The notes under the pieces: model-generated
Database searches by the model: none
The model's input: the letters and a program-made list of their open reading frames with translations, nothing else
What the model was told of the DNA's origin: nothing
Source of the DNA: a phage
Length of the DNA stretch: 64,000 bases
Sequence record: PV805633.1
Strand: one strand, 5' to 3'
Made by a program: the position numbers and the translations under genes
Shown: positions 1,311-59,042 of the stretch, one piece after another
How the letters are laid out: the number at the start of each line of letters is the position of its first letter
How positions within the stretch are numbered: position 1 is the stretch's first letter

Positions 1311-1415
1311 AACTCAGCGATAAACTAAGTAGAGTGTAATCCTACTTTTAGACGAAGAGTCACTAAAAGTTAAACGTAAACAGAAGCAGATAACTTAGAG
1401 TAAGGAGTAATCAAG

Positions 1416-1715
1416 ATGCGTACATTATGTAACCGTTATAACTCACAGAAGTTGATTGTTACGTTGCAACCTTGGGGTAGTAAGATGTCATTGGATGCTC
1501 GTTGGCAAGTGTCTGTAGAAGGCAAGAATGGCAAATGTCATGACCACTACTTCGTAGCTAAGCCTACTCGTAAACAAATCCGTAAACTTCACAAAGTACG
1601 TAAGCATTACTTACTAAGTAAATGCTACGAATGTGGCAAAAGGATAGAACTAGGTAAAGAATTTACTTTTGATGATCTCAACTATGCTCACAATAACTGC
1701 TTAGGAACTAAATAA
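1416..1715 (+). CDS. hypothetical Cys-containing protein (possible zinc-binding)
   Basis: ORF track; AAGGAG SD; CHDHY...CYECGK spacing. Confidence 0.55.
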   Translation: MRTLCNRYNSQKLIVTLQPWGSKMSLDARWQVSVEGKNGKCHDHYFVAKPTRKQIRKLHKVRKHYLLSKCYECGKRIELGKEFTFDDLNYAHNNCLGTK

Positions 1716-1817
1716 AATGACTACTCATAAAATTGTAAAAAGCTGGACTACTGAAGCTGGTTTATCTGCTGTAATCCTGCTAGTAATGATGGTTCTCACC
1801 ATTGTGGTTACGTAGCA

Positions 1818-2120
1818 TTGCCTGCTGATTTAGCAGACAAAGACTTTATTAATTATGATCCAGAAGAATCCATTTCTGTTCATGGTGGTGTTACCTATCA
1901 AGATGCACTTCCTCAATTAGAGGATAAAATCGCTATCGGTTTTGATTGTGCTCATCACGGTGACCTCATGAAATGCCCTGAGAAGTACAAAGGTACTCCT
2001 CTGGAAGGACTGCGCATGTATTCAGAAGGTGTATGGCGAGATGAGCAATATTGCACCAATGAGTGTGAGTCTATGGCTAAACAACTAATGGCAATGTTGC
2101 CTAAACAACTAGAAGGATAA
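1818..2120 (+). CDS. hypothetical protein; 5-prime end uncertain
   Basis: ORF track (TTG start, no SD); frame is open upstream to about 1755 and may join the ATG-initiated ORF at 1717 through a 1-nt frame change near a T run. Confidence 0.35.
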   Translation: MPADLADKDFINYDPEESISVHGGVTYQDALPQLEDKIAIGFDCAHHGDLMKCPEKYKGTPLEGLRMYSEGVWRDEQYCTNECESMAKQLMAMLPKQLEG

Positions 2121-4791: not shown

Positions 4792-5610
4792 ATGTACTCA
4801 TCTATCGAACATCAGAAGCAGCTTGAAGTCCTATTCAATAAAAATCAATTACTGCCTCGCATGAGGAAGGAATTCGAGGACTCCAAAGAAATTGACTTTA
4901 AGGCATTCGCTGCCTATTTGGAAATTGATTATAAGCTGCTCATTGATGCAATGGTACAAATTGCCCTACATAAACGTGCTGACATCCAGACTATGATTGG
5001 CTCTCTCATGAGTCACTCAGATGATGCTCAGTACATCGCTGACTGTCTGTATAAGATGGCAGAGAATGACTGCTTCAACTATGACCCTACCATCGACAAG
5101 TTCGGTGTTATCTATGAGATTAGTGAAGATGTTCAGATGGAACTGGAAGCATTCCAGTATCCATTACCTATCGTAAGTGCTCCTAATCCTGTCAGAACTA
5201 ACAGGGATACTGGTTATTACCAGACTAAAGGAAGCATCATCCTCAAGAAGAACCATCATGAGATGGATGTCTGCCTTGACCACATCAACCGTATGAACAA
5301 TCAACGTCTCTGTATTAACTGGGACGTTGCTAACTATGTAAAAGACTCTCGTCCTAACATGGATAAACCCAAAGAGGGTGAAACCCGTCAGGAATATGAG
5401 AAACGTGTTAAAGCCTTTGAGAAGTACAGTCGTACAGCTAAGGAAGTAATGGAGTTAGTGACCCAAGAAGGTAATAACTTCTCACTAGGCCACAAATACG
5501 ACAAACGTGGGCGTACCTACGCTCAGGGCTATCACATTAACTATCAGGGAACCAGCTACAACAAAGCTGTTCTGGAGTTCGCTGATAAGGAGCTGGTAAA
5601 CGATGATTAA
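4792..5610 (+). CDS. phage RNA polymerase II small subunit (N-terminal part of a T7-like single-subunit RNAP; N4 gp15-like)
   Basis: KYDKRGRTYAQGYHINYQG resembles the T7 RNAP DWRGRVYAV...NPQG region; size 272 aa and position match N4 gp15. Confidence 0.65.
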   Translation: MYSSIEHQKQLEVLFNKNQLLPRMRKEFEDSKEIDFKAFAAYLEIDYKLLIDAMVQIALHKRADIQTMIGSLMSHSDDAQYIADCLYKMAENDCFNYDPTIDKFGVIYEISEDVQMELEAFQYPLPIVSAPNPVRTNRDTGYYQTKGSIILKKNHHEMDVCLDHINRMNNQRLCINWDVANYVKDSRPNMDKPKEGETRQEYEKRVKAFEKYSRTAKEVMELVTQEGNNFSLGHKYDKRGRTYAQGYHINYQGTSYNKAVLEFADKELVNDD

Positions 5611-5736
5611 TAATCGTGCAGTAGAAGACTTCTATGCTCATAGAGAGTTGGTACTGAAACGTATCAATGAAGCAATGAAACGTGAAGCAGAAGCTAAAGC
5701 TAAACGTAACCGTAAATAAATCCAAATGCGAGCCAA

Positions 5737-6185
5737 GTGGCTCAAGACGCTAAGGAATATAAAATGCAACTGTTAACCGCCCGTGAATACCTGAAAGTAG
5801 ATATCGCTAACAACTATGGCTTAGACAAAAAGACATGGGATGAGCGTATTAGCTGGTTCGATGAGAACGAAGCTAACCTGCTCAATCTGGTAGATGAAGC
5901 TGAAGAATCTGCACTGTTCTACGCAGGTGTAAACGCTTGGAAAGATATGAAAGCTGGTAAGCCTATCGGTTATGCCGTAGCTCTGGATGCTACATCATCT
6001 GGCTTGCAGTTACTGGCTTGCTTGACTGGTGATCGTTCTGCTGCTGAATTGTGTAATGTAGTTAACTACATGGGCGAGAATGGTAAGCCATTACGACGTG
6101 ATGCTTATACAGTTATCTATCACAAGATGCTGGACATCCTTGGTGAATCATCCCGTATTAAACGTAGTGATACTAAGCAGGCCGT
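5737..6185 (+). CDS. phage RNA polymerase II large subunit, exon 1 (motif A)
   Basis: LDATSSGLQLLACLTGD matches T7 RNAP motif A; frame ends 2 codons into the insertion; RIKRSDTKQAV is the first half of motif B. Confidence 0.7.
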
Positions 6186-6991
6186 TAACCTATAAGTCAT
6201 GGCGGCCTTTAAACCGGGTGAACTCATGGAACATCCCTAGTGGACAATCATGAGCCAAGTTGGTAACGTAGAAAGCTCAATAAGGAGCATTCTATGTCAG
6301 AATTCAAAACGTGCAGTCGATGTAAAGAATTACTTCCTATCGAAGTATTCCCAGAGACTAAAAAAGCAATCACAGGACTCAAGACTAATTACGAGAATCG
6401 TTGCAGACCTTGCAAGGCTGCTGCTGCTCGTGAATGGCGTAAAAATAATCCCGGTTACACTGGAACTGGGATTCTTAAGGCAATACCGGAAGAGCATCGT
6501 AATGGTATTCAGCAGTCTCACTTAGACTGAGAGATGCAAAGAGCAGATGTAAAAAGCTCGGTAAGCCTATGCCTGATTGCACAGTAGAGTACTTATTTGA
6601 AATCCTTAAATCACAGGAATTCAAATGTGCTTTAACTGGTGCAACCTTAGTAATTGAGTCGGGACATCCCTTGTGTCTATCATTAGACCAGATAGAGCCA
6701 AGCAAGGGATATAGTATTGATAATGTTCAATGGTTAGCTTGGTGTGTAAACCGAGCAAAGGGTGACCTTTCTACCAATGACTTTATTGATATGTGTGATG
6801 CTGTTTTGAATAACCAAAAGGTGCAGAGACTATCGAAAAGCAGCGTAAGCTGAACTTAGTAGAGTAGGCCCAAGTGGGTCGAAGCGCCCGGCTAGACTAA
6901 TAGTCTAGATGATATAGTCCGAACTCACTGGTAACAGTGAGATGCAGGTAAAGCTGCTGGGGAAGATTAACGACCTTCCTTGAACATAATG
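6186..6991 (+). mobile_element. putative group I intron carrying an HNH homing endonuclease
   Basis: Splits motif B; exon 1 ends in T, intron ends in G; GCGGCC guide sequence about 16 nt in pairs with the exon end GGCCGT with U-G at the splice site; P7-like AGACTA/TAGTCC and S-like GATGATATAGTCCG; internal ORF has its own AAGGAG SD. Confidence 0.6.
6294..6853 (+). CDS. HNH-family homing endonuclease, disrupted by a 1-nt frame change near 6500-6510
   Basis: N-terminal CSRCK...CRPCK zinc ribbon (ORF 6294..6530); C-terminal LRLRDAKSRCKKLGKP...CALTG...SLDQIEP..GYSIDNVQW..CVNRAKG in another frame (open from 6503, ORF 6569..6853). Confidence 0.55.
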
Positions 6992-7787
6992 TATGACTGC
7001 ATTCTATGGTTCAGAAGCCAAGCCTAAAGAAGTATTCGGTGAAGGTATTCGTCTCAAGACTTTTGAGAATGTAATGGAAACAGTTGCTAGTGGACCTTGG
7101 GCACTGAACAAGTTCTTACTGCAATGTGGTGACCCGGATGCTAACCGTTACGTATGGATACTGCCTGACAACTTCCATGCTGTCATTAAGGTCATGGTTC
7201 CAGAAGTACAGACTGTTAACTTCTTAGGTAAGCCATTCGACATCACTCGTATGGTTCAGGGTACTGAAGATAAGACTCGTATGCTCTCTGCTAACATCAC
7301 CCACTCTATTGATGGAATGGTGGTACGTGAGATGCTACGTCGTTGTAACTTCAACATGAACCAAGTGAACTATGTTAAGCCCCTCTGTGAAGGAACCAGT
7401 GAGTATATGCTGGGTACTAGCGAGAACTACGACATGGTTAGTCAACTGTGGCATAACTATGAGAAATCAGGATTCCTGTCTACCCGTATCTTTGATTATC
7501 TGGATTCTGACTCAATTAAACTGGTTGATACAGATGTAATCATGGCTATGCTTAATACCATGCCTAAGAAACCATTCCCTGTAATGACCGTACATGACTG
7601 CTTCCGTTGCCACCCTAACTACGGTAATGACTTGCGTCGTCAGTACAATCAGATTCTGTCTGACATTGCTAAGAGTGATCTACTGGGCTTCATCCTGTCT
7701 CAGGTACTGAGACAAGAGTTCTCTGCTGGTAAGCTGGATGACAGCCTCTGGCAGGACATCCTTGAAACGGATTATGCATTAAGTTAA
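6992..7787 (+). CDS. phage RNA polymerase II large subunit, exon 2 (motifs B and C)
   Basis: MTAFYGSEAKPK matches T7 MTLAYGSKEFG; VHDCF matches T7 motif C IHDSFG; exon 1 + exon 2 = about 414 aa, close to N4 gp16. Confidence 0.7.
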
Positions 7788-7794
7788 TAAACTG

Positions 7795-7829
7795 GCCTCA
7801 TACCTTCGGGTATGGGGCTTTTATTTTTT
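7795..7829 (+). terminator. rho-independent terminator
   Basis: GCCTCATACC-TTCG-GGTATGGGGC followed by TTTTATTTTTT. Confidence 0.7.
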
Positions 7830-8029: not shown

Positions 8030-8056
8030 CCACCCTCATGGGTGGCTTTCTTTTTA
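8030..8056 (+). terminator. rho-independent terminator
   Basis: GCCACCC-TCAT-GGGTGGC followed by TTTCTTTTT. Confidence 0.65.
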
Positions 8057-8973: not shown

Positions 8974-9010
8974 GACCTCCCTATTGAAGGGAGGTCTTTT
9001 TTTTTTTTTG
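8974..9010 (+). terminator. rho-independent terminator
   Basis: GACCTCCC-loop-GGGAGGTC followed by a T run of more than 10. Confidence 0.75.
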
Positions 9011-10023: not shown

Positions 10024-11076
10024 ATGGCGAACATTGACTCCTTGACTGTATGTAATACACGGCAAGCCCGTAACTTTATTATCCGTGCCTTGCAAGCAGG
10101 TAACGTACCGTTCCTGACTTCATCACCGGGTATGGGTAAGTCTGCAATTATTCATTCTATTGCAGAAGAATTTGGTATGAAGCTGATTGACCATCGTTTG
10201 TCTACTTCTGCCCCAGAAGACTTATCTGGTCTACCATTCCGTAATGGTGACCGTGCAGAATTTATTCCTTTCGCTGATTTATTCCCTATCGAGGGTGACG
10301 AAGTACCGAAAGGTTATAATGGCTGGCTCCTGTTCCTTGATGAGTTCAACTCAGCTAAAAAGGAAGTAGTAGCTGCTGCATACAAACTGATTCTAGACCG
10401 TATGACCGGACAGAAAAAACTTCACCCTAATGTGATGATTATCTGTGCCGGTAACAAAGCTACTGACCGAGCCATAGTTAACCCACTGGGTACTGCAATG
10501 CAGTCCCGTGTTGTCCACTTCGAAATGGAACTCGACTTCGACATCTTTGTTGAAGACGTTATGATTCCACAAGAATGGGATGAGCGTCTGGTTGCATTCT
10601 TACATGCTAACCCTGGTTATCTGCATGACTTCGACCCTGCCCACAAGAACAAAACATTCTGTTGCCCACGTACCTGGGACTTTGTTAACAAAGACCTCAA
10701 GAACCGACCAGAAGGTGCTTTGCCTGATGAAGATTCTATCTACTATGCAGGCCACGTCACTGCTGGTAAAGCTACAGAGTTTGTTCAGTTCACTCAGGTA
10801 TACAATCGTATGATTACGATTGAGAAGGTAGTCAAAGACCCTTTGGGATGTGCACTACCGGAAGATAATAACCTGTGCTGGGCTACTGTTAACCATCTGG
10901 CTAACAAAACTACTGAAGATAACTTCGCTGATGTTCTTCAGTACATTGAACGCTTTAAAACGTTCACCCATAAGATTCTGTACTTCCGTACAGTAGGCAA
11001 AGCATTACCAGAAATTCAGGCTACCCCTGAATGGCGTAAAGCTGCTGCCAATATCTCTCGTTACATTCACGGATAA
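10024..11076 (+). CDS. MoxR-like AAA+ ATPase
   Basis: Walker A SPGMGKS; Walker B/MoxR motif LFLDEFNSA...AAAYKLILDR. Confidence 0.7.
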   Translation: MANIDSLTVCNTRQARNFIIRALQAGNVPFLTSSPGMGKSAIIHSIAEEFGMKLIDHRLSTSAPEDLSGLPFRNGDRAEFIPFADLFPIEGDEVPKGYNGWLLFLDEFNSAKKEVVAAAYKLILDRMTGQKKLHPNVMIICAGNKATDRAIVNPLGTAMQSRVVHFEMELDFDIFVEDVMIPQEWDERLVAFLHANPGYLHDFDPAHKNKTFCCPRTWDFVNKDLKNRPEGALPDEDSIYYAGHVTAGKATEFVQFTQVYNRMITIEKVVKDPLGCALPEDNNLCWATVNHLANKTTEDNFADVLQYIERFKTFTHKILYFRTVGKALPEIQATPEWRKAAANISRYIHG

Positions 11077-11083
11077 TCACAAC

Positions 11084-12259
11084 ATGAACCAGATACCTCA
11101 GCACACACTTAGTGATGAACAACTCATGCGTGAGTATGACCGTATTCAGGCCCAAGCCTTCCTAGGCAAGTCTGCTGCGTTTTTTGGTTCATTGCTGTGT
11201 AGTCTTAAGTTCTCATGGAAACGTGAGGGTTGTCCCACTGCATGTACCGATGGGATAGAACTCCATTTCAACCCTGACTTCTTTATCTGGATGTGCCCTG
11301 ATGCAAGAGAAACAGTGCTAATGCACGAACTCTGGCATGTGGCATATCTGCATGGCATCCGTTGTGGAAGCCGTGACCCGGAAGTCTGGAACCAGGCATG
11401 TGACCACTTCATTAACCTTCAGTTAGAGGAAGATGGTTACAAGTTCACTGGTATCGACGAAGGTATTTGCAAAGACCCTCAATATAAAGGATGGGTCGAA
11501 GAAGACATCTACGATGACCTGATGAAGAACCCTCAGAAAAGGCAGAAGCCGTCGGGGGGAGCTGGAGCAAGTCTTGCTGGCGACATGAAAGCCCCCTCTT
11601 CGGGGCAGTCCCAGGGTGCTGTTGTCAACAACGTAGTGCGTGCAATGCAAAGCCAGAAGATGGCTGGTGGAACAATGCCCGGTAAAGGTGCTGGTCGTAT
11701 GGAAGAGGTTATTACCCAATTCCTTAAACCAGTAGTTCCATGGCAGGAAGTTCTGATGAACTTCTTTACCGACATTGATGACACACATTATACGTGGGCC
11801 AGACCTAACCGTCGCTTCACTGACGTCTATCTACCTTCTCTGGAAGATGATGAAGGACGCTTACGACACTTAGCCTACTTTGAGGATGTATCCGGTTCTA
11901 TTAGTAGTGCTGACTCTCTGCGTTTTAACTCAGAGGTTGCCTACGTTAAGAGCCAGTTCAATCCTAAGAAGATGACCCTAATTACCTTCGACGATATTAT
12001 CCAAGAAGAAATAGACATCACTGAAGAAGATACTTTTGAAGAGATTAAGATTACTGGTCGTGGTGGTACAAACCTTGAACCAGTGCGCGAATGGATTATT
12101 AAGAATAAACCAACCGCTGCAATCATATTCTCCGATATGTATGTTCGTCCAATGGAAGAATTACCATTTGATATCCCTATCATCTGGTGTGTTCTGAATA
12201 ATCCTAATGCTACCGTACCTTTCGGGGAGGTAGTTCATATCCCTAAAGGAATGAAATAA
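11084..12259 (+). CDS. VWA-like / putative metallopeptidase partner of the MoxR ATPase
   Basis: HELWHVAYLH (HExxH) in the N-terminal half; immediately downstream of the MoxR-like gene. Confidence 0.45.
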   Translation: MNQIPQHTLSDEQLMREYDRIQAQAFLGKSAAFFGSLLCSLKFSWKREGCPTACTDGIELHFNPDFFIWMCPDARETVLMHELWHVAYLHGIRCGSRDPEVWNQACDHFINLQLEEDGYKFTGIDEGICKDPQYKGWVEEDIYDDLMKNPQKRQKPSGGAGASLAGDMKAPSSGQSQGAVVNNVVRAMQSQKMAGGTMPGKGAGRMEEVITQFLKPVVPWQEVLMNFFTDIDDTHYTWARPNRRFTDVYLPSLEDDEGRLRHLAYFEDVSGSISSADSLRFNSEVAYVKSQFNPKKMTLITFDDIIQEEIDITEEDTFEEIKITGRGGTNLEPVREWIIKNKPTAAIIFSDMYVRPMEELPFDIPIIWCVLNNPNATVPFGEVVHIPKGMK

Positions 12260-26512: not shown

Positions 26513-26796
26513 TGACTAAGCTCTCCGGTGGTCTTAATAACTACTATGTAGTTTTAATTAAAAATCCCCAACGGAAAGAGCAAGAGCCATATCAAGCAGA
26601 GTGTGAAGATATTATCCAAGCACTGGGCATGACCTTCGATGAAGGTTGTGCCTTTAAAGCTCTATGGCGAAATGCTGCTGCCCGTATGGGTAATGGTAAA
26701 CCAGGTAACTCTTCGGTGTACGACTCAGAGAAGATTGTGCATTATGCCAATCGAATATTGAAAAAGGCTTACAATGAAAGTAACCAACAACCATGA
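26512..26796 (+). CDS. hypothetical protein
   Basis: ORF track. Confidence 0.5.
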   Translation: MTKLSGGLNNYYVVLIKNPQRKEQEPYQAECEDIIQALGMTFDEGCAFKALWRNAAARMGNGKPGNSSVYDSEKIVHYANRILKKAYNESNQQP

Positions 26797-46119: not shown

Positions 46120-48074
46120 TTAAGGCATTTTCACATACCCAGGTATGCCTTGGGCTTGGCGTATATACCGTATAGCACGCTCCTGGTTTTCTTTCTCAGC
46201 CTCCCGATCTACGGAAGCCTGTGATCGAAAGTTACGAGGAGCCAGGTTTTGCGGATCAGCCTGTACCTGCCCCTGAGCATTTTTAAGCATTGCAGCAGCT
46301 CTAGCAACAGCCTCCTGTCGTGCAGGTAACAGTGCAGTAAGTGCAGTCTGACCTGTAGCAATCTTATTTGGGTGTTTGACAGTGCAGCTACGGCAGCATC
46401 ATATGCAGTCTGTGCTGCCTGAATATTCTGCATAGCCTGAGCACGACCAAGGTTACGTACACTTGCTTCAAGGGGTTCACCACGTTTTAACCCCTCAATC
46501 ATTTGGTCTACCTGACGGTCATTAAGTCGCAAGCCATTACCGGCTTCTGGGGTTTGCCCTATAGTTAGATAATCAATAAGACGTCCTGTATTACTTTCCG
46601 GTACGTTAGTCATTGCACGTTGAACAACAACACCTGCCATAGCAGGAGATACATTAGCACGCTGAGCAATATCATTGATACGAGCCACAACCCATTGTTT
46701 ATCTGCCCCCTTAAAGTCACCCTCTAGTAATCTGTTAGCAACTTCCCCAACAGTAGAAGTGTCATTTAAGGCAGGTAAATAATCAGGAGCAATACTTCCA
46801 GCATTGTCCTCCATAGAACGAGTACCAATCATACCGGTAGCCAGAGTAGATACTGCCTGATTACCTTGGTTATTCTGAACCATAGCTAGTGGGTCAGCCC
46901 CTACTTCAGCTTGGGCAATAACAGGTTTCATCTCTTCCCAAGTCATATCCTTATAAGCACCTGGAGTAGAGTTAGGCAGAGCAGCCCAAGTATCTTTAAG
47001 GTTACCGTTCTTACGGGCCTCGAAGATAGCCCTACCAATCTTATCCTGGTTCTCAGGAGAAAGAGGCTGGCTTTGCCAATCTGGACCAAGAACTTTAGGA
47101 GCGAAGTCTAGCAGAGTAGCTTGGTTAATCTGGAATGCACCAACAGGAGAAGCACCCTGCTTCGACTTCATACTATCCTGATGCTTAATTACATCACCAA
47201 TACTCATTTGAGTAATAGGAGTAGATGTACCAGCAAACTGGTAAGTAACATCATAAGGAGAACCCTGACGAGTACCAGCAGTACCTGGGGCAGACGTAGC
47301 ACCAACATTGTTACCGTAAACACCCGGATATGCTCGTGCAAGCATTTCCTGCAAACGTGCCTGTGCAACCGGAGACAGATGCTTACTATAAGATTCTGCC
47401 AGAATACGGGCATCGTCAGCATTCTCAGCACCACGAGTAATCAGTGCCATTACCCCCGTAGCAGCCTGACTATCAGCATCATTACGTTGAGCAACACCTA
47501 AATCAAAACGATTCTGTGCCTGATTAATAGCCTGACCACCCTGACCTTGAAGACGACTCAGCATGTCCAATTGCTGGTCAGCAGGGAGTGCAGACAATGC
47601 ATCACGGGTCTGACTTAATGCAGCATTAATACGGTTCTGGTCACCCGACTGATAAGCCTCAGACAGCAAACGAATAGCAGGGGAAGCATTATCTAATGCA
47701 GTGTTAGTATCCCGTAAACGATCAAAGTTATAAGTATTGTAGTCATTGGTTCCCTGCTGACCTTGTTGAGTCAACAGTGTACCTGCTCGCTCATCAAGGT
47801 TTTGGAGGGTACGCTGGTTTATCAATGAAGGGTCAACCCCCTGAAACAGTGCACCAGATGCCAAAGCATTGCGGTACTCAGTAGGGTCTTGGTACTGCAT
47901 AGCATTCATCATGACGGCATTGCCAGCCTCCTGCTTGGCAGCGTTCTGGAAATTACCCAGTGCATCACTTAAGCCGGAGGTGGCGTTACCAATCATGCTA
48001 CCAAATGTGCGAATGCTGTCACCAACTCCAGAGAAGTTAGGTGCATCAACATTTCTCCACGTTATCTGAGCCAT
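46120..48074 (-). CDS. virion structural protein (N4 gp51/52-like), with apparent 1-nt frame change near 46366-46372
   Basis: ORF track 46209..48074 ends in Leu-rich out-of-frame sequence; alternative frame gives a plausible Ala/Gln-rich tail ending at 46120 just before the terminator. Confidence 0.5.
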
Positions 48075-57926: not shown

Positions 57927-58427
57927 CTATTCAAAAAGTTTACGGTCAGCCTGAATTTGCTTACCCAACTCAATTAGTTGGTTGTCACGGAGTCTAACAG
58001 TTGCCCGGAGTTCTTCAACCAAACGTCTGCCTTCTTCAAGACTGTTGTCGAGTCTGGCTGCATGGCTTGCAAGACTTCTGCACTCAAGGGTTCCGGCTTC
58101 GGCTTGACGTTTATATACCGATGCTCGTCTTTCAGACTGTTGCATCCGGCTGTCGTAATCACTGCTAACGCGAGCAAGCTCGCTTGCGTAATTACTCTCA
58201 GCCGTCTGCAACCGGGAAGTAAGTAACCCGACTTCATAACTATGGTTTCTTTGGAGAGCATTGTATTTGTCCTGTAGTTTTTGTGTTGCCTTCTGGTCTT
58301 CAACCTTTTGAGCATCCCATCTCTTTTGGACAGTAGACTGTCCATTGGAATTGCCCCAAAAGTAAATGGTGGCCCCGAGGACCACCACCAGAAGATAAGG
58401 CCAACCTTTAGAGATTAGCATCTTCAT
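57927..58427 (-). CDS. i-spanin (Rz-like)
   Basis: N-terminal [17 protein letters not shown] then coiled-coil periplasmic domain; start set at internal Met. Confidence 0.55.
57974..58237 (-). CDS. o-spanin (Rz1-like) lipoprotein embedded in the i-spanin gene
   Basis: Alternate frame inside i-spanin; signal peptide with lipobox-like TAGC; Pro-rich mature region. Confidence 0.5.
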   Translation of the reverse strand: MKSGYLLPGCRRLRVITQASLLALAVITTAGCNSLKDEHRYINVKPKPEPLSAEVLQAMQPDSTTVLKKADVWLKNSGQLLDSVTTN

Positions 58428-59042
58428 TACATGCCTCCAGTGGTACATTACCGATTCGGTTAGCTACCCAACCATACGTAAAGTCTGGCATGTTCAATGA
58501 GGTGTAGTGGTTCAATTGTTTAGCATCAAGCAACTTAATCATTACCTGACATGCTGCAACTTTGCCTCGTTTTTTCTGTAATGCTTTATATGCATTAACA
58601 GTACCTGCACCGACTTTACCATCAACTTGTATTTTAGGGTAGTCTTTGCCATCACGGGACATTTCATTAAGGGATTGCTGCAACCACTTAGCTGGTCTGG
58701 TTACACCGGTATTAACACCAGCATCAACCAGTTTGTGTGTTACAGCAGGAGATATATCAGCGAAGGCTACGAAGTTAGGCTTAATAACGTAGTCATCAAT
58801 GTATATCTCAGCAGCCATTTCTTTCGATAAACCCTTCATGGAACCATCCCAACCATACTCAGTAGCCAGAACTTCTTTGTGAGACTTAGCTACTGATTGG
58901 GTAATACCATGATTGGTTTCCCCACCTGGGTCACGAGGATTGTTTACGTACCCCCTTCCATATAGAACACTGCCCCCAGAATAGCAGCGATAACTCCTCC
59001 CACCGCACCCCCTTTTGCAGCAAGTTTCTGTTTAGCTTTCAT
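58408..59042 (-). CDS. SAR-endolysin, GH108-like N-acetylmuramidase with PG_binding_3-like C-terminus; apparent 1-nt frame change at a G5 run (plus strand C5 at about 58951-58955)
   Basis: ATG-initiated MKAKQKLAAKGGAVGGVIAAILGAVFYMEGG stops 4 codons after the run; downstream frame continues GYVNNPRDPGGETNHGIT...DGKVGAGTVNAYKAL. Confidence 0.55.

Follow-up and report, generated by a model that had tools for sequence, protein, structure and literature searches.

A single missing base splits the endonuclease gene of a group I intron in the RNAP2 gene of a G7C-like phage and is probably a consensus sequencing error

In the 64,000-nt stretch of phage DNA analysed here (hereafter the window), the endonuclease gene of a group I intron was found to lack one A of the AAA codon for Lys70, which breaks its frame, and we infer that this break is probably a consensus sequencing error and not biological decay, because two more one-base losses unique to the window break essential genes. 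In the mechanism proposed here, a 186-codon homing endonuclease gene is nested in an intron of the gene for the large subunit of RNAP2; the enzyme of related phages presumably cuts intron-less RNAP2 alleles, after which the intron would be copied in, and the intron RNA, as predicted from a covariation-backed structure, would splice itself out to allow RNAP2 to be made. Apart from the absent A at 6501–6502, the window copy has the appearance of a gene that selection still maintains. The missing A would then be a single-base deletion error, one of several in the assembly, and restoring it would return an ordinary intact intron endonuclease.

The reading frame that starts at ATG 6294 closes after 78 codons at TGA 6528–6530. 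The frame one base behind has a TAA at 6500–6502, next opens with TGG at 6503 and runs to TGA 6851–6853, so that both frames are open across 6503–6527. This agrees with the first-pass annotation, which had assigned a zinc-ribbon N terminus (6294–6530) and an HNH region (6503–6853) to different frames with a junction in 6500–6528. Alignment with intact homologues, by which that annotation had proposed to place the indel, located one missing A in the Lys70 codon relative to ten relatives, at 6501–6502 (plus strand) and hence at the very start of the proposed range. The window reads CAT CGT AA TGG TAT where 10 of 10 close relatives read CAT CGT AAA TGG TAT, and 6294–6853 measures 560 nt compared to the 561-nt ORF of the intact relatives. 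The closest relative, the metagenomic copy L014, reads CATCGTAAATGGTATTC at this site, and the missing A is the sole gap in its 2042-nt alignment with the window. Codons 1–69, comprising the CxxC...CxxC zinc ribbon and a linker (6294–6500, plus strand), are followed by 9 out-of-frame codons up to TGA 6528–6530, while codons 71–186 and the stop, which encode a PacI-like His-Me finger domain with D132, Y140, N144 and N153 (6503–6853, plus strand), continue in the −1 frame. A MAFFT alignment with distant relatives gave a gap at 6500 plus an extra TAA nonsense change, a solution rejected since the closer relatives show a simple AAA to AA change.

Restoring the A yielded a 186-codon ORF. The two pieces are collinear on phrog_1035, matching positions 61–109 and 126–230, respectively, and joined they matched this family with E=2e-30; the joined protein was 89% identical to a 186-aa homologue (P0001) over 100% of its length. 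It has 156 homologues, and the best 120 of the 156 measured 171–210 aa. Judged from these alignments, the 6294–6530 ORF and the 6503–6853 frame are halves of one 186-codon gene, far beyond chance. P0001 is encoded on a 74.8-kb Salmonella assembly contig as well as on several contigs from metagenomes, flanked in every case by two RNAP2 fragments, and L014, the copy closer still, came from a pattern scan of metagenomes. The continuous ORF expected of an active homing endonuclease is interrupted in this genome by the break at 6501–6502. Exact look-ups of the 78-aa and 94-aa shortened products returned no record. Neither the AA nor the AAA allele occurred in viral contigs or GTDB genomes when searched as a DNA pattern, and the metagenomes held one intact AAA copy, that of L014. 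A megablast search of E. coli genomes and plasmids with the intron gave no match, and an intron-core pattern scan of IMG/VR found 2 loci, too small a number for estimating the frequency at which the endonuclease is naturally disrupted.

The window represents a G7C-like, N4-type E. coli phage (Gamaleyavirus), its closest record being vB_EcoP_G7C with 96–96.6% identity in megablast searches of 5700–7800 and 18001–43000. The subunits of the middle-gene RNA polymerase correspond to ORFs at 4792–5610, 5737–6195 and 6993–7787. The large-subunit gene gp16, a single 405-codon gene in G7C, is interrupted in the window by ~800 nt, an insert found in none of the roughly 50 Gamaleyavirus records of the phage collection. 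Exon 1 of this N4 gp16 homologue (5764–6185, plus strand), identified by tblastn with G7C gp16, ends in GGCCGT, the last U of which makes the U·G pair of P1, and exon 2 (6992–7787, plus strand) begins with T ATG ACT. The splice junction falls within polymerase motif B, between KQAV and MTAFYGS, and the intron-less gp16 target sequence is GCCGTTATGACTGC. In-silico splicing of 5764–6185 to 6992–7787 restored the host frame and gave a gap-free 405-aa RNAP2 with 394 of its 405 residues identical to G7C gp16, which bears out the earlier view that the endonuclease is intron-encoded and identifies 6186–6991 as the intron. Exact look-ups of both RNAP2 exon products returned no record and hence no independent copy of the window lineage. 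The two genomes differ in other mobile genes as well: the window (1373–2113, 5610–5763, 11076–11084, 26766–26774 and 32765) has no counterpart of the five HNH endonuclease genes that stand free in G7C (gp2.1, 15.1, 24.1, 41.1 and 47.1), and G7C gp41, 156 residues long, matches the window over its first 85 residues only. Conversely, the RNAP2 intron is present in the window and absent from G7C, and PhAPEC5 has a DNA polymerase intron that is absent from the window.

The intron (6186–6991, plus strand, 806 nt), IA-like with P7.1/P7.2, starts with TAACC and ends with AATG, with the omega-G at 6991. Comparison with intron-less relatives leaves a two-base (TA) ambiguity at the junction, and the bounds follow from the group I rules, under which exon 1 ends in U and the intron in G. 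An Rfam scan of the whole window gave no RF00028 match at the gathering threshold of 50 bits; below it, partial matches of 30.2 bits (E=1.3e-5) and 17.8 bits were found, because the 560-nt ORF splits the model, and the segment from the 3′ strand of P7 to P9 was aligned by Rfam with high posterior probability. Helices P1, P10, P3, P4, P5, P7, P7.1, P7.2, P8, P9, P9.1 and P9.2 were mapped on 7 aligned ORF-less introns. The internal guide sequence GCGGCC (6202–6207, plus strand) forms P1 with GGCCGU of exon 1 (6180–6185), a helix that was 100% paired with 2 covarying pairs, kept U6185·G6202 as U·G in 7 of 7 sequences and covaried with the exon in one relative (L018). P10 joins AGUCAU (6195–6200) to AUGACU of exon 2 (6993–6998; plus strand, 92.5% paired). 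The U·G pair of P1, a guide that also forms P10 and an omega-G (G6991) before exon 2, as in group I introns, were thus all present. On the same strand, the 5′ strand of P3 (CCGGG, 6214–6218) pairs with CCCGG at 6887–6891 (3 of 5 pairs covarying, 100% paired), and the 3′ strand of P7 (AUAGUC, 6914–6919) pairs with GACUAU at 6828–6833, P7 being invariant. After it comes P9 (6924–6941) with 6 of 7 pairs covarying, followed by P9.1 and P9.2 with 2 of 4 and 4 of 5, respectively. Altogether, 64 pairs were scored, with 92.3% of cells paired and 21 pairs with double changes, a count in which P8 stood one column out of register and scored badly; read directly, P8 is its own perfect 5–7 bp hairpin in each of the 7 sequences. 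None of 500 shuffles reached the observed covariation, and slid controls gave 3–5 double-change pairs. The group I core of P3-P4-P5 and P7-P8-P9 with the P3/P7 pseudoknot was therefore recovered together with its covariation.

The endonuclease ORF is nested between a putative P6 and P7, and P7.1/P7.2 lie between P7 and P3′, which is the layout of subgroup IA phage introns such as that of T4 td. The last 26 nt of the ORF double as the 5′ strand of P7 (6828–6833) and as P7.1 (6841–6852), which accounts for the invariance of the C-terminal VQRLSK. With its core intact in the window, the intron should leave RNAP2 expression unaffected. The ribosome-binding site (AAGGAG, 6282–6287) and start codon (6294–6296) of the endonuclease lie in a hairpin predicted by RNA folding at 6266–6297 (plus strand; −14.7 kcal/mol, z = −3.86, equalled by 0 of 200 shuffles), an arrangement reminiscent of how I-TevI translation is masked in the td intron of T4; the hairpin may also be part of P6/P6a. 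Separately, the 3′ core of the intron (6811–6930, P7.2 to P7′) showed 76–87% identity to regions inside or beside the split DNA polymerase gene 43 of the Aeromonas T4-like phages 25, Aes508 and AS-gz, and also matched parts of Vibrio phage genomes that lack annotation, suggesting that related intron cores are present at these places.

The repaired protein combines two domains. The four cysteines C7, C10, C37 and C40 of the CxxC...CxxC motif are invariant or nearly so in 120 homologues and form a zinc ribbon in an AF2 model, in keeping with the N-terminal zinc ribbon named in the first-pass annotation. Its HNH assignment for the second domain held at the level of the fold, a beta-beta-alpha-metal (HNH / His-Me finger) fold, and did not extend to the canonical active site. 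The general-base His of the DH motif at the end of strand beta-1 is replaced by Q133 (D132-Q133), a residue that is Q in the consensus and K in Vibrio phage phi 1, so that this position is not conserved. The metal-binding Asp/Asn residues D132, N144 and N153 are invariant in the 120 homologues and align with the PacI motif VDR...EGY...N...CNRIK, and the omega-loop Y140, also invariant in the 120, is aligned to the Tyr of the PacI EGY. PacI, in group 20 of the His-Me fingers, is the documented case of a loop Tyr replacing the catalytic His (PMC5714182, PMC3384342). Thus, "HNH" is right at the fold level, and the active site looks PacI-like, with the invariant Y140 at the position of the catalytic Tyr of PacI. 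The nuclease domain also contains a conserved helix at residues 66–88 (SAxRxRLxDAKxRCKKL). None of the Pfam HNH models match the endonuclease, and nothing useful came from searching Pfam and NCBIfam with the two pieces or the repaired protein.

The age of the lesion was addressed through selection on the repaired reading. With the A restored, dN/dS against relatives (Nei-Gojobori) was 0.10–0.12 overall and 0.05–0.06 for the 116 codons downstream of the lesion, at dS 0.24–0.54. Changes on the window branch, polarised with L014 and the L008 group, comprised 7 synonymous and 2 non-synonymous codons (3 non-synonymous nucleotide changes) downstream of the lesion, compared to a neutral expectation of about four non-synonymous per synonymous change; upstream they comprised 5 non-synonymous and 1 synonymous, in codons 44–66 of the poorly conserved linker. 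The repaired reading contains no second stop or indel and keeps all of the family-invariant residues C37, C40, S130, D132, G139, Y140, N144, N153 and K156, and it showed neither the several lesions nor the dN/dS near 1 of a decayed pseudogene. By this measure, purifying selection has acted on the downstream domain throughout essentially all of the lineage's history. Strong purifying selection downstream of a single lesion indicates that the lesion is either very recent or non-biological.

Evidence bearing on a non-biological origin came from the rest of the window. When every G7C protein was compared with it by tblastn, the conserved genes, that of the 3748-aa virion RNA polymerase included, were full-length and in one frame with the exception of gp16, which is split by the intron, gp51 and gp61. 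The endolysin gp61 (N4 gp61 homologue; minus strand, ORFs 58408–58839 and ~58944–59042) carries a one-base deletion at ~58954 that leaves 32 codons in frame. The site, on the gene strand, reads GGAAGG-GGGTAC in the window compared to GGAAGGAGGGTAC, the intact form being GGAGGG, and the deletion is unique to the window, as the extra base is present in 3 IMG/VR contigs and in all 12 of the phage records listed. The virion structural protein gp51 (minus strand, 46209–48074) has a one-base deletion at ~46369 that puts its conserved C-terminal ~80 residues out of frame, continuing in another frame to 46129. This site, again on the gene strand, reads CCCA-AATAAG in the window and CCCAGAATAAG in G7C, with CCCAGAAT as the intact form; 25 of 25 matching records span one base more. 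Both deletions are isolated and uncompensated within otherwise well-matched sequence. Since a plaque-forming lytic phage cannot have its endolysin cut short, we infer that the sequence contains single-base deletion errors. The endolysin frameshift is almost certainly one of them and is the main reason for doubting the frameshift in the endonuclease.

Comparison of four genomes for isolated 1-nt indels pointed in the same direction. The window had 6 unique isolated 1-nt indels alongside 672 unique substitutions, whereas its sister genome G7C, with an equal substitution branch length, had 0 alongside 666; the corresponding numbers were 0 and 1058 for F22 and 2 and 1220 for PhAPEC5. In the window, deletions make up five of the six, and 4 of these deletions shorten a homopolymer, a type of run that signal-based and flow-based sequencing platforms under-call. 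The six do not include the gp51 site, which fell outside the filter of the scan, or the endonuclease site, which the three relatives lack. At roughly 8 events per 64 kb, the chance of one falling within a 560-nt ORF is about 7%, a value that we guess to be above the prior probability of a natural frameshift that has only just arisen and is accompanied by no further sign of relaxed selection. Short homopolymers between genes or in terminators showed window-unique 1-nt length differences at 8051, 8951, 33732 and 34060 (T6 to T5, CCC to CC, A6 to A5 and T6 to T5, respectively), and a window-unique one-base insertion at 33686. A T13 run at 8997, downstream of the gp17 (Hoc-like) gene, corresponds to T7 in G7C.

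Several observations weigh against a consensus error. The endonuclease is dispensable, and a real frameshift in it would be tolerated, unlike one in the endolysin; polymerase slippage, too, yields loss of one unit from an A3 run. The ORF occupies less than 1% of the window, which makes it unlikely that a single random error would land there, and all other conserved genes are intact, including the virion RNA polymerase (3754 codons), indicating a low error rate in absolute terms. All three lesions could also be real if the genome were uncultured or defective. Even so, a consensus error remains in our judgement the probable explanation, and of the two origins offered by the first-pass annotation, a decaying endonuclease or a consensus indel at a short run, the one-base indel (AAA to AA) stood and long-term decay was disfavoured by the single lesion and the dN/dS of 0.05–0.06.

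A genuine and very recent null allele is possible and clearly the less probable reading. The A would have been lost by replication slippage at a time when the endonuclease was no longer needed, the intron having been fixed, as the first step of the cycle of invasion, degeneration and loss; the intron would still splice, and a 78-aa zinc-ribbon peptide would be the sole product. A dispensable gene, an intact intron core with its splice-site pairings and a slippage-type lesion in an A3 run are all consistent with such an event, and defective intron endonuclease genes have a phage precedent in T4 I-TevIII. The 5:1 ratio of non-synonymous to synonymous changes upstream of the lesion (codons 44–66) could hint at relaxation, but this segment is a poorly conserved linker. 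Strong purifying selection downstream, including on the window's own branch, means that the event would have to be extremely recent. The AA allele is in no other record, two one-base deletions that are just as unique affect genes whose loss a viable phage could not sustain, and the window has an excess of unique 1-nt indels. It is somewhat doubtful that the missing A is real and that the intron was caught very soon after the knockout, with its ribozyme intact, its nuclease domain pristine and a 78-aa peptide translated that maybe binds the target, in a gene of an uncharacterised family of intron endonucleases with an apparent PacI-type Tyr in place of the HNH histidine.

It is very improbable that the split is a functional layout, expressed either by programmed −1 ribosomal frameshifting or as a two-piece enzyme consisting of the zinc-ribbon peptide and a nuclease domain restarted at ATG 6569. 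The required shift is indeed −1, the frames overlap at 6503–6527 and the ATG at 6569 is in frame. Yet no slippery X XXY YYZ heptamer is present in CGU AAU GGU AUU CAG or in 6498–6527, the A run of 2 nt is too short for transcriptional slippage, and the two-frame layout is not kept in relatives, the best 120 of 156 homologues and the ten close relatives all being single continuous ORFs. A restart at 6569 would drop residues 71–92, with most of the conserved helix 66–88, and no good Shine-Dalgarno sequence precedes it. Long-term decay to an old, eroding homing endonuclease pseudogene, for which the frameshift itself is the sole argument, is less credible still and can be put aside in view of the single lesion, the 116 open downstream codons, the low dN/dS both there and overall, and the retention of all family-invariant residues in the repaired reading.

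Taken together, these results make the frameshift nothing new in kind and probably not real. Should it prove an artefact, the lesson concerns annotation: the genes for the intron endonuclease, endolysin and gp51 need checking against the reads before any of them is labelled a pseudogene. A real frameshift would amount to a minor and unsurprising instance of the life cycle of homing elements, without much broader significance. Its surroundings are biologically more interesting than the frameshift itself: many N4-like phages have a group I intron at motif B of RNAP2, carrying a family of endonucleases with a putative PacI-like Tyr active site.

Interrupted RNAP2 genes occur in the N4-like Achromobacter phages JWAlpha and JWDelta, Burkholderia phages HN02, HN04 and HN05, Vibrio phage phi 1 and Pseudomonas phage ZC08. 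In these relatives the same gene is affected, the homologous ORFs (185–187 aa) are 52–56% identical and the intron core is conserved; in JWAlpha and HN04 the insertion point is the same as in the window. Intact ORFs of 558–564 nt occupy this place in RNAP2 in JWAlpha, HN04 and phi 1, in contrast to the broken ORF of the window. The closest copies, with 89% amino acid identity, come from the Salmonella assembly contig and from metagenomes, whereas the Gamaleyavirus records of the phage collection have no insert. The interruption was noted in JWAlpha/JWDelta by a paper that also asked if the gene remains functional (PMC3915230), and that of ZC08 was described as an endonuclease insertion (PMC5418858); both papers treat it as a gene interruption or endonuclease insertion, with no group I intron described. 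A second intron type with a homologous endonuclease (59% identity in L017) was also seen, at 1390–2160 of L017 and 950–1830 of L005 (phi 1). The L017 intron interrupts the same RNAP2 motif 8 nt downstream of the insertion site in the window, following ATGACCT. Its 5′ half differs from that of the window intron and is similar to that of L005. Neighbouring positions are thus targeted by two related homing elements.

The similarity of the nuclease domain to PacI (PDB 3LDY/3M7K, His-Me finger group 20) is marginal (17% identity, E=0.026). Two zinc sites surround the active site of PacI, a homodimeric restriction enzyme, whereas the window protein has a separate N-terminal zinc ribbon and is intron-encoded. 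The closest parallels in architecture are the td, nrdB and sunY introns of T4, with I-TevI, I-TevII and I-TevIII, which are likewise of subgroup IA type with P7.1/P7.2 and an ORF looped out between P6 and P7. As in the window, the end of the ORF overlaps core helices and the start of the endonuclease lies in a hairpin. They differ from it in that the host gene here is an RNA polymerase gene, and in that I-TevI and I-TevII are GIY-YIG enzymes and I-TevIII a canonical HNH enzyme, in contrast to the PacI-like family. The T4 I-TevIII gene is itself a natural defective allele, truncated relative to that of RB3. Its defect is an experimentally confirmed deletion, whereas that in the window is a single base and a candidate.
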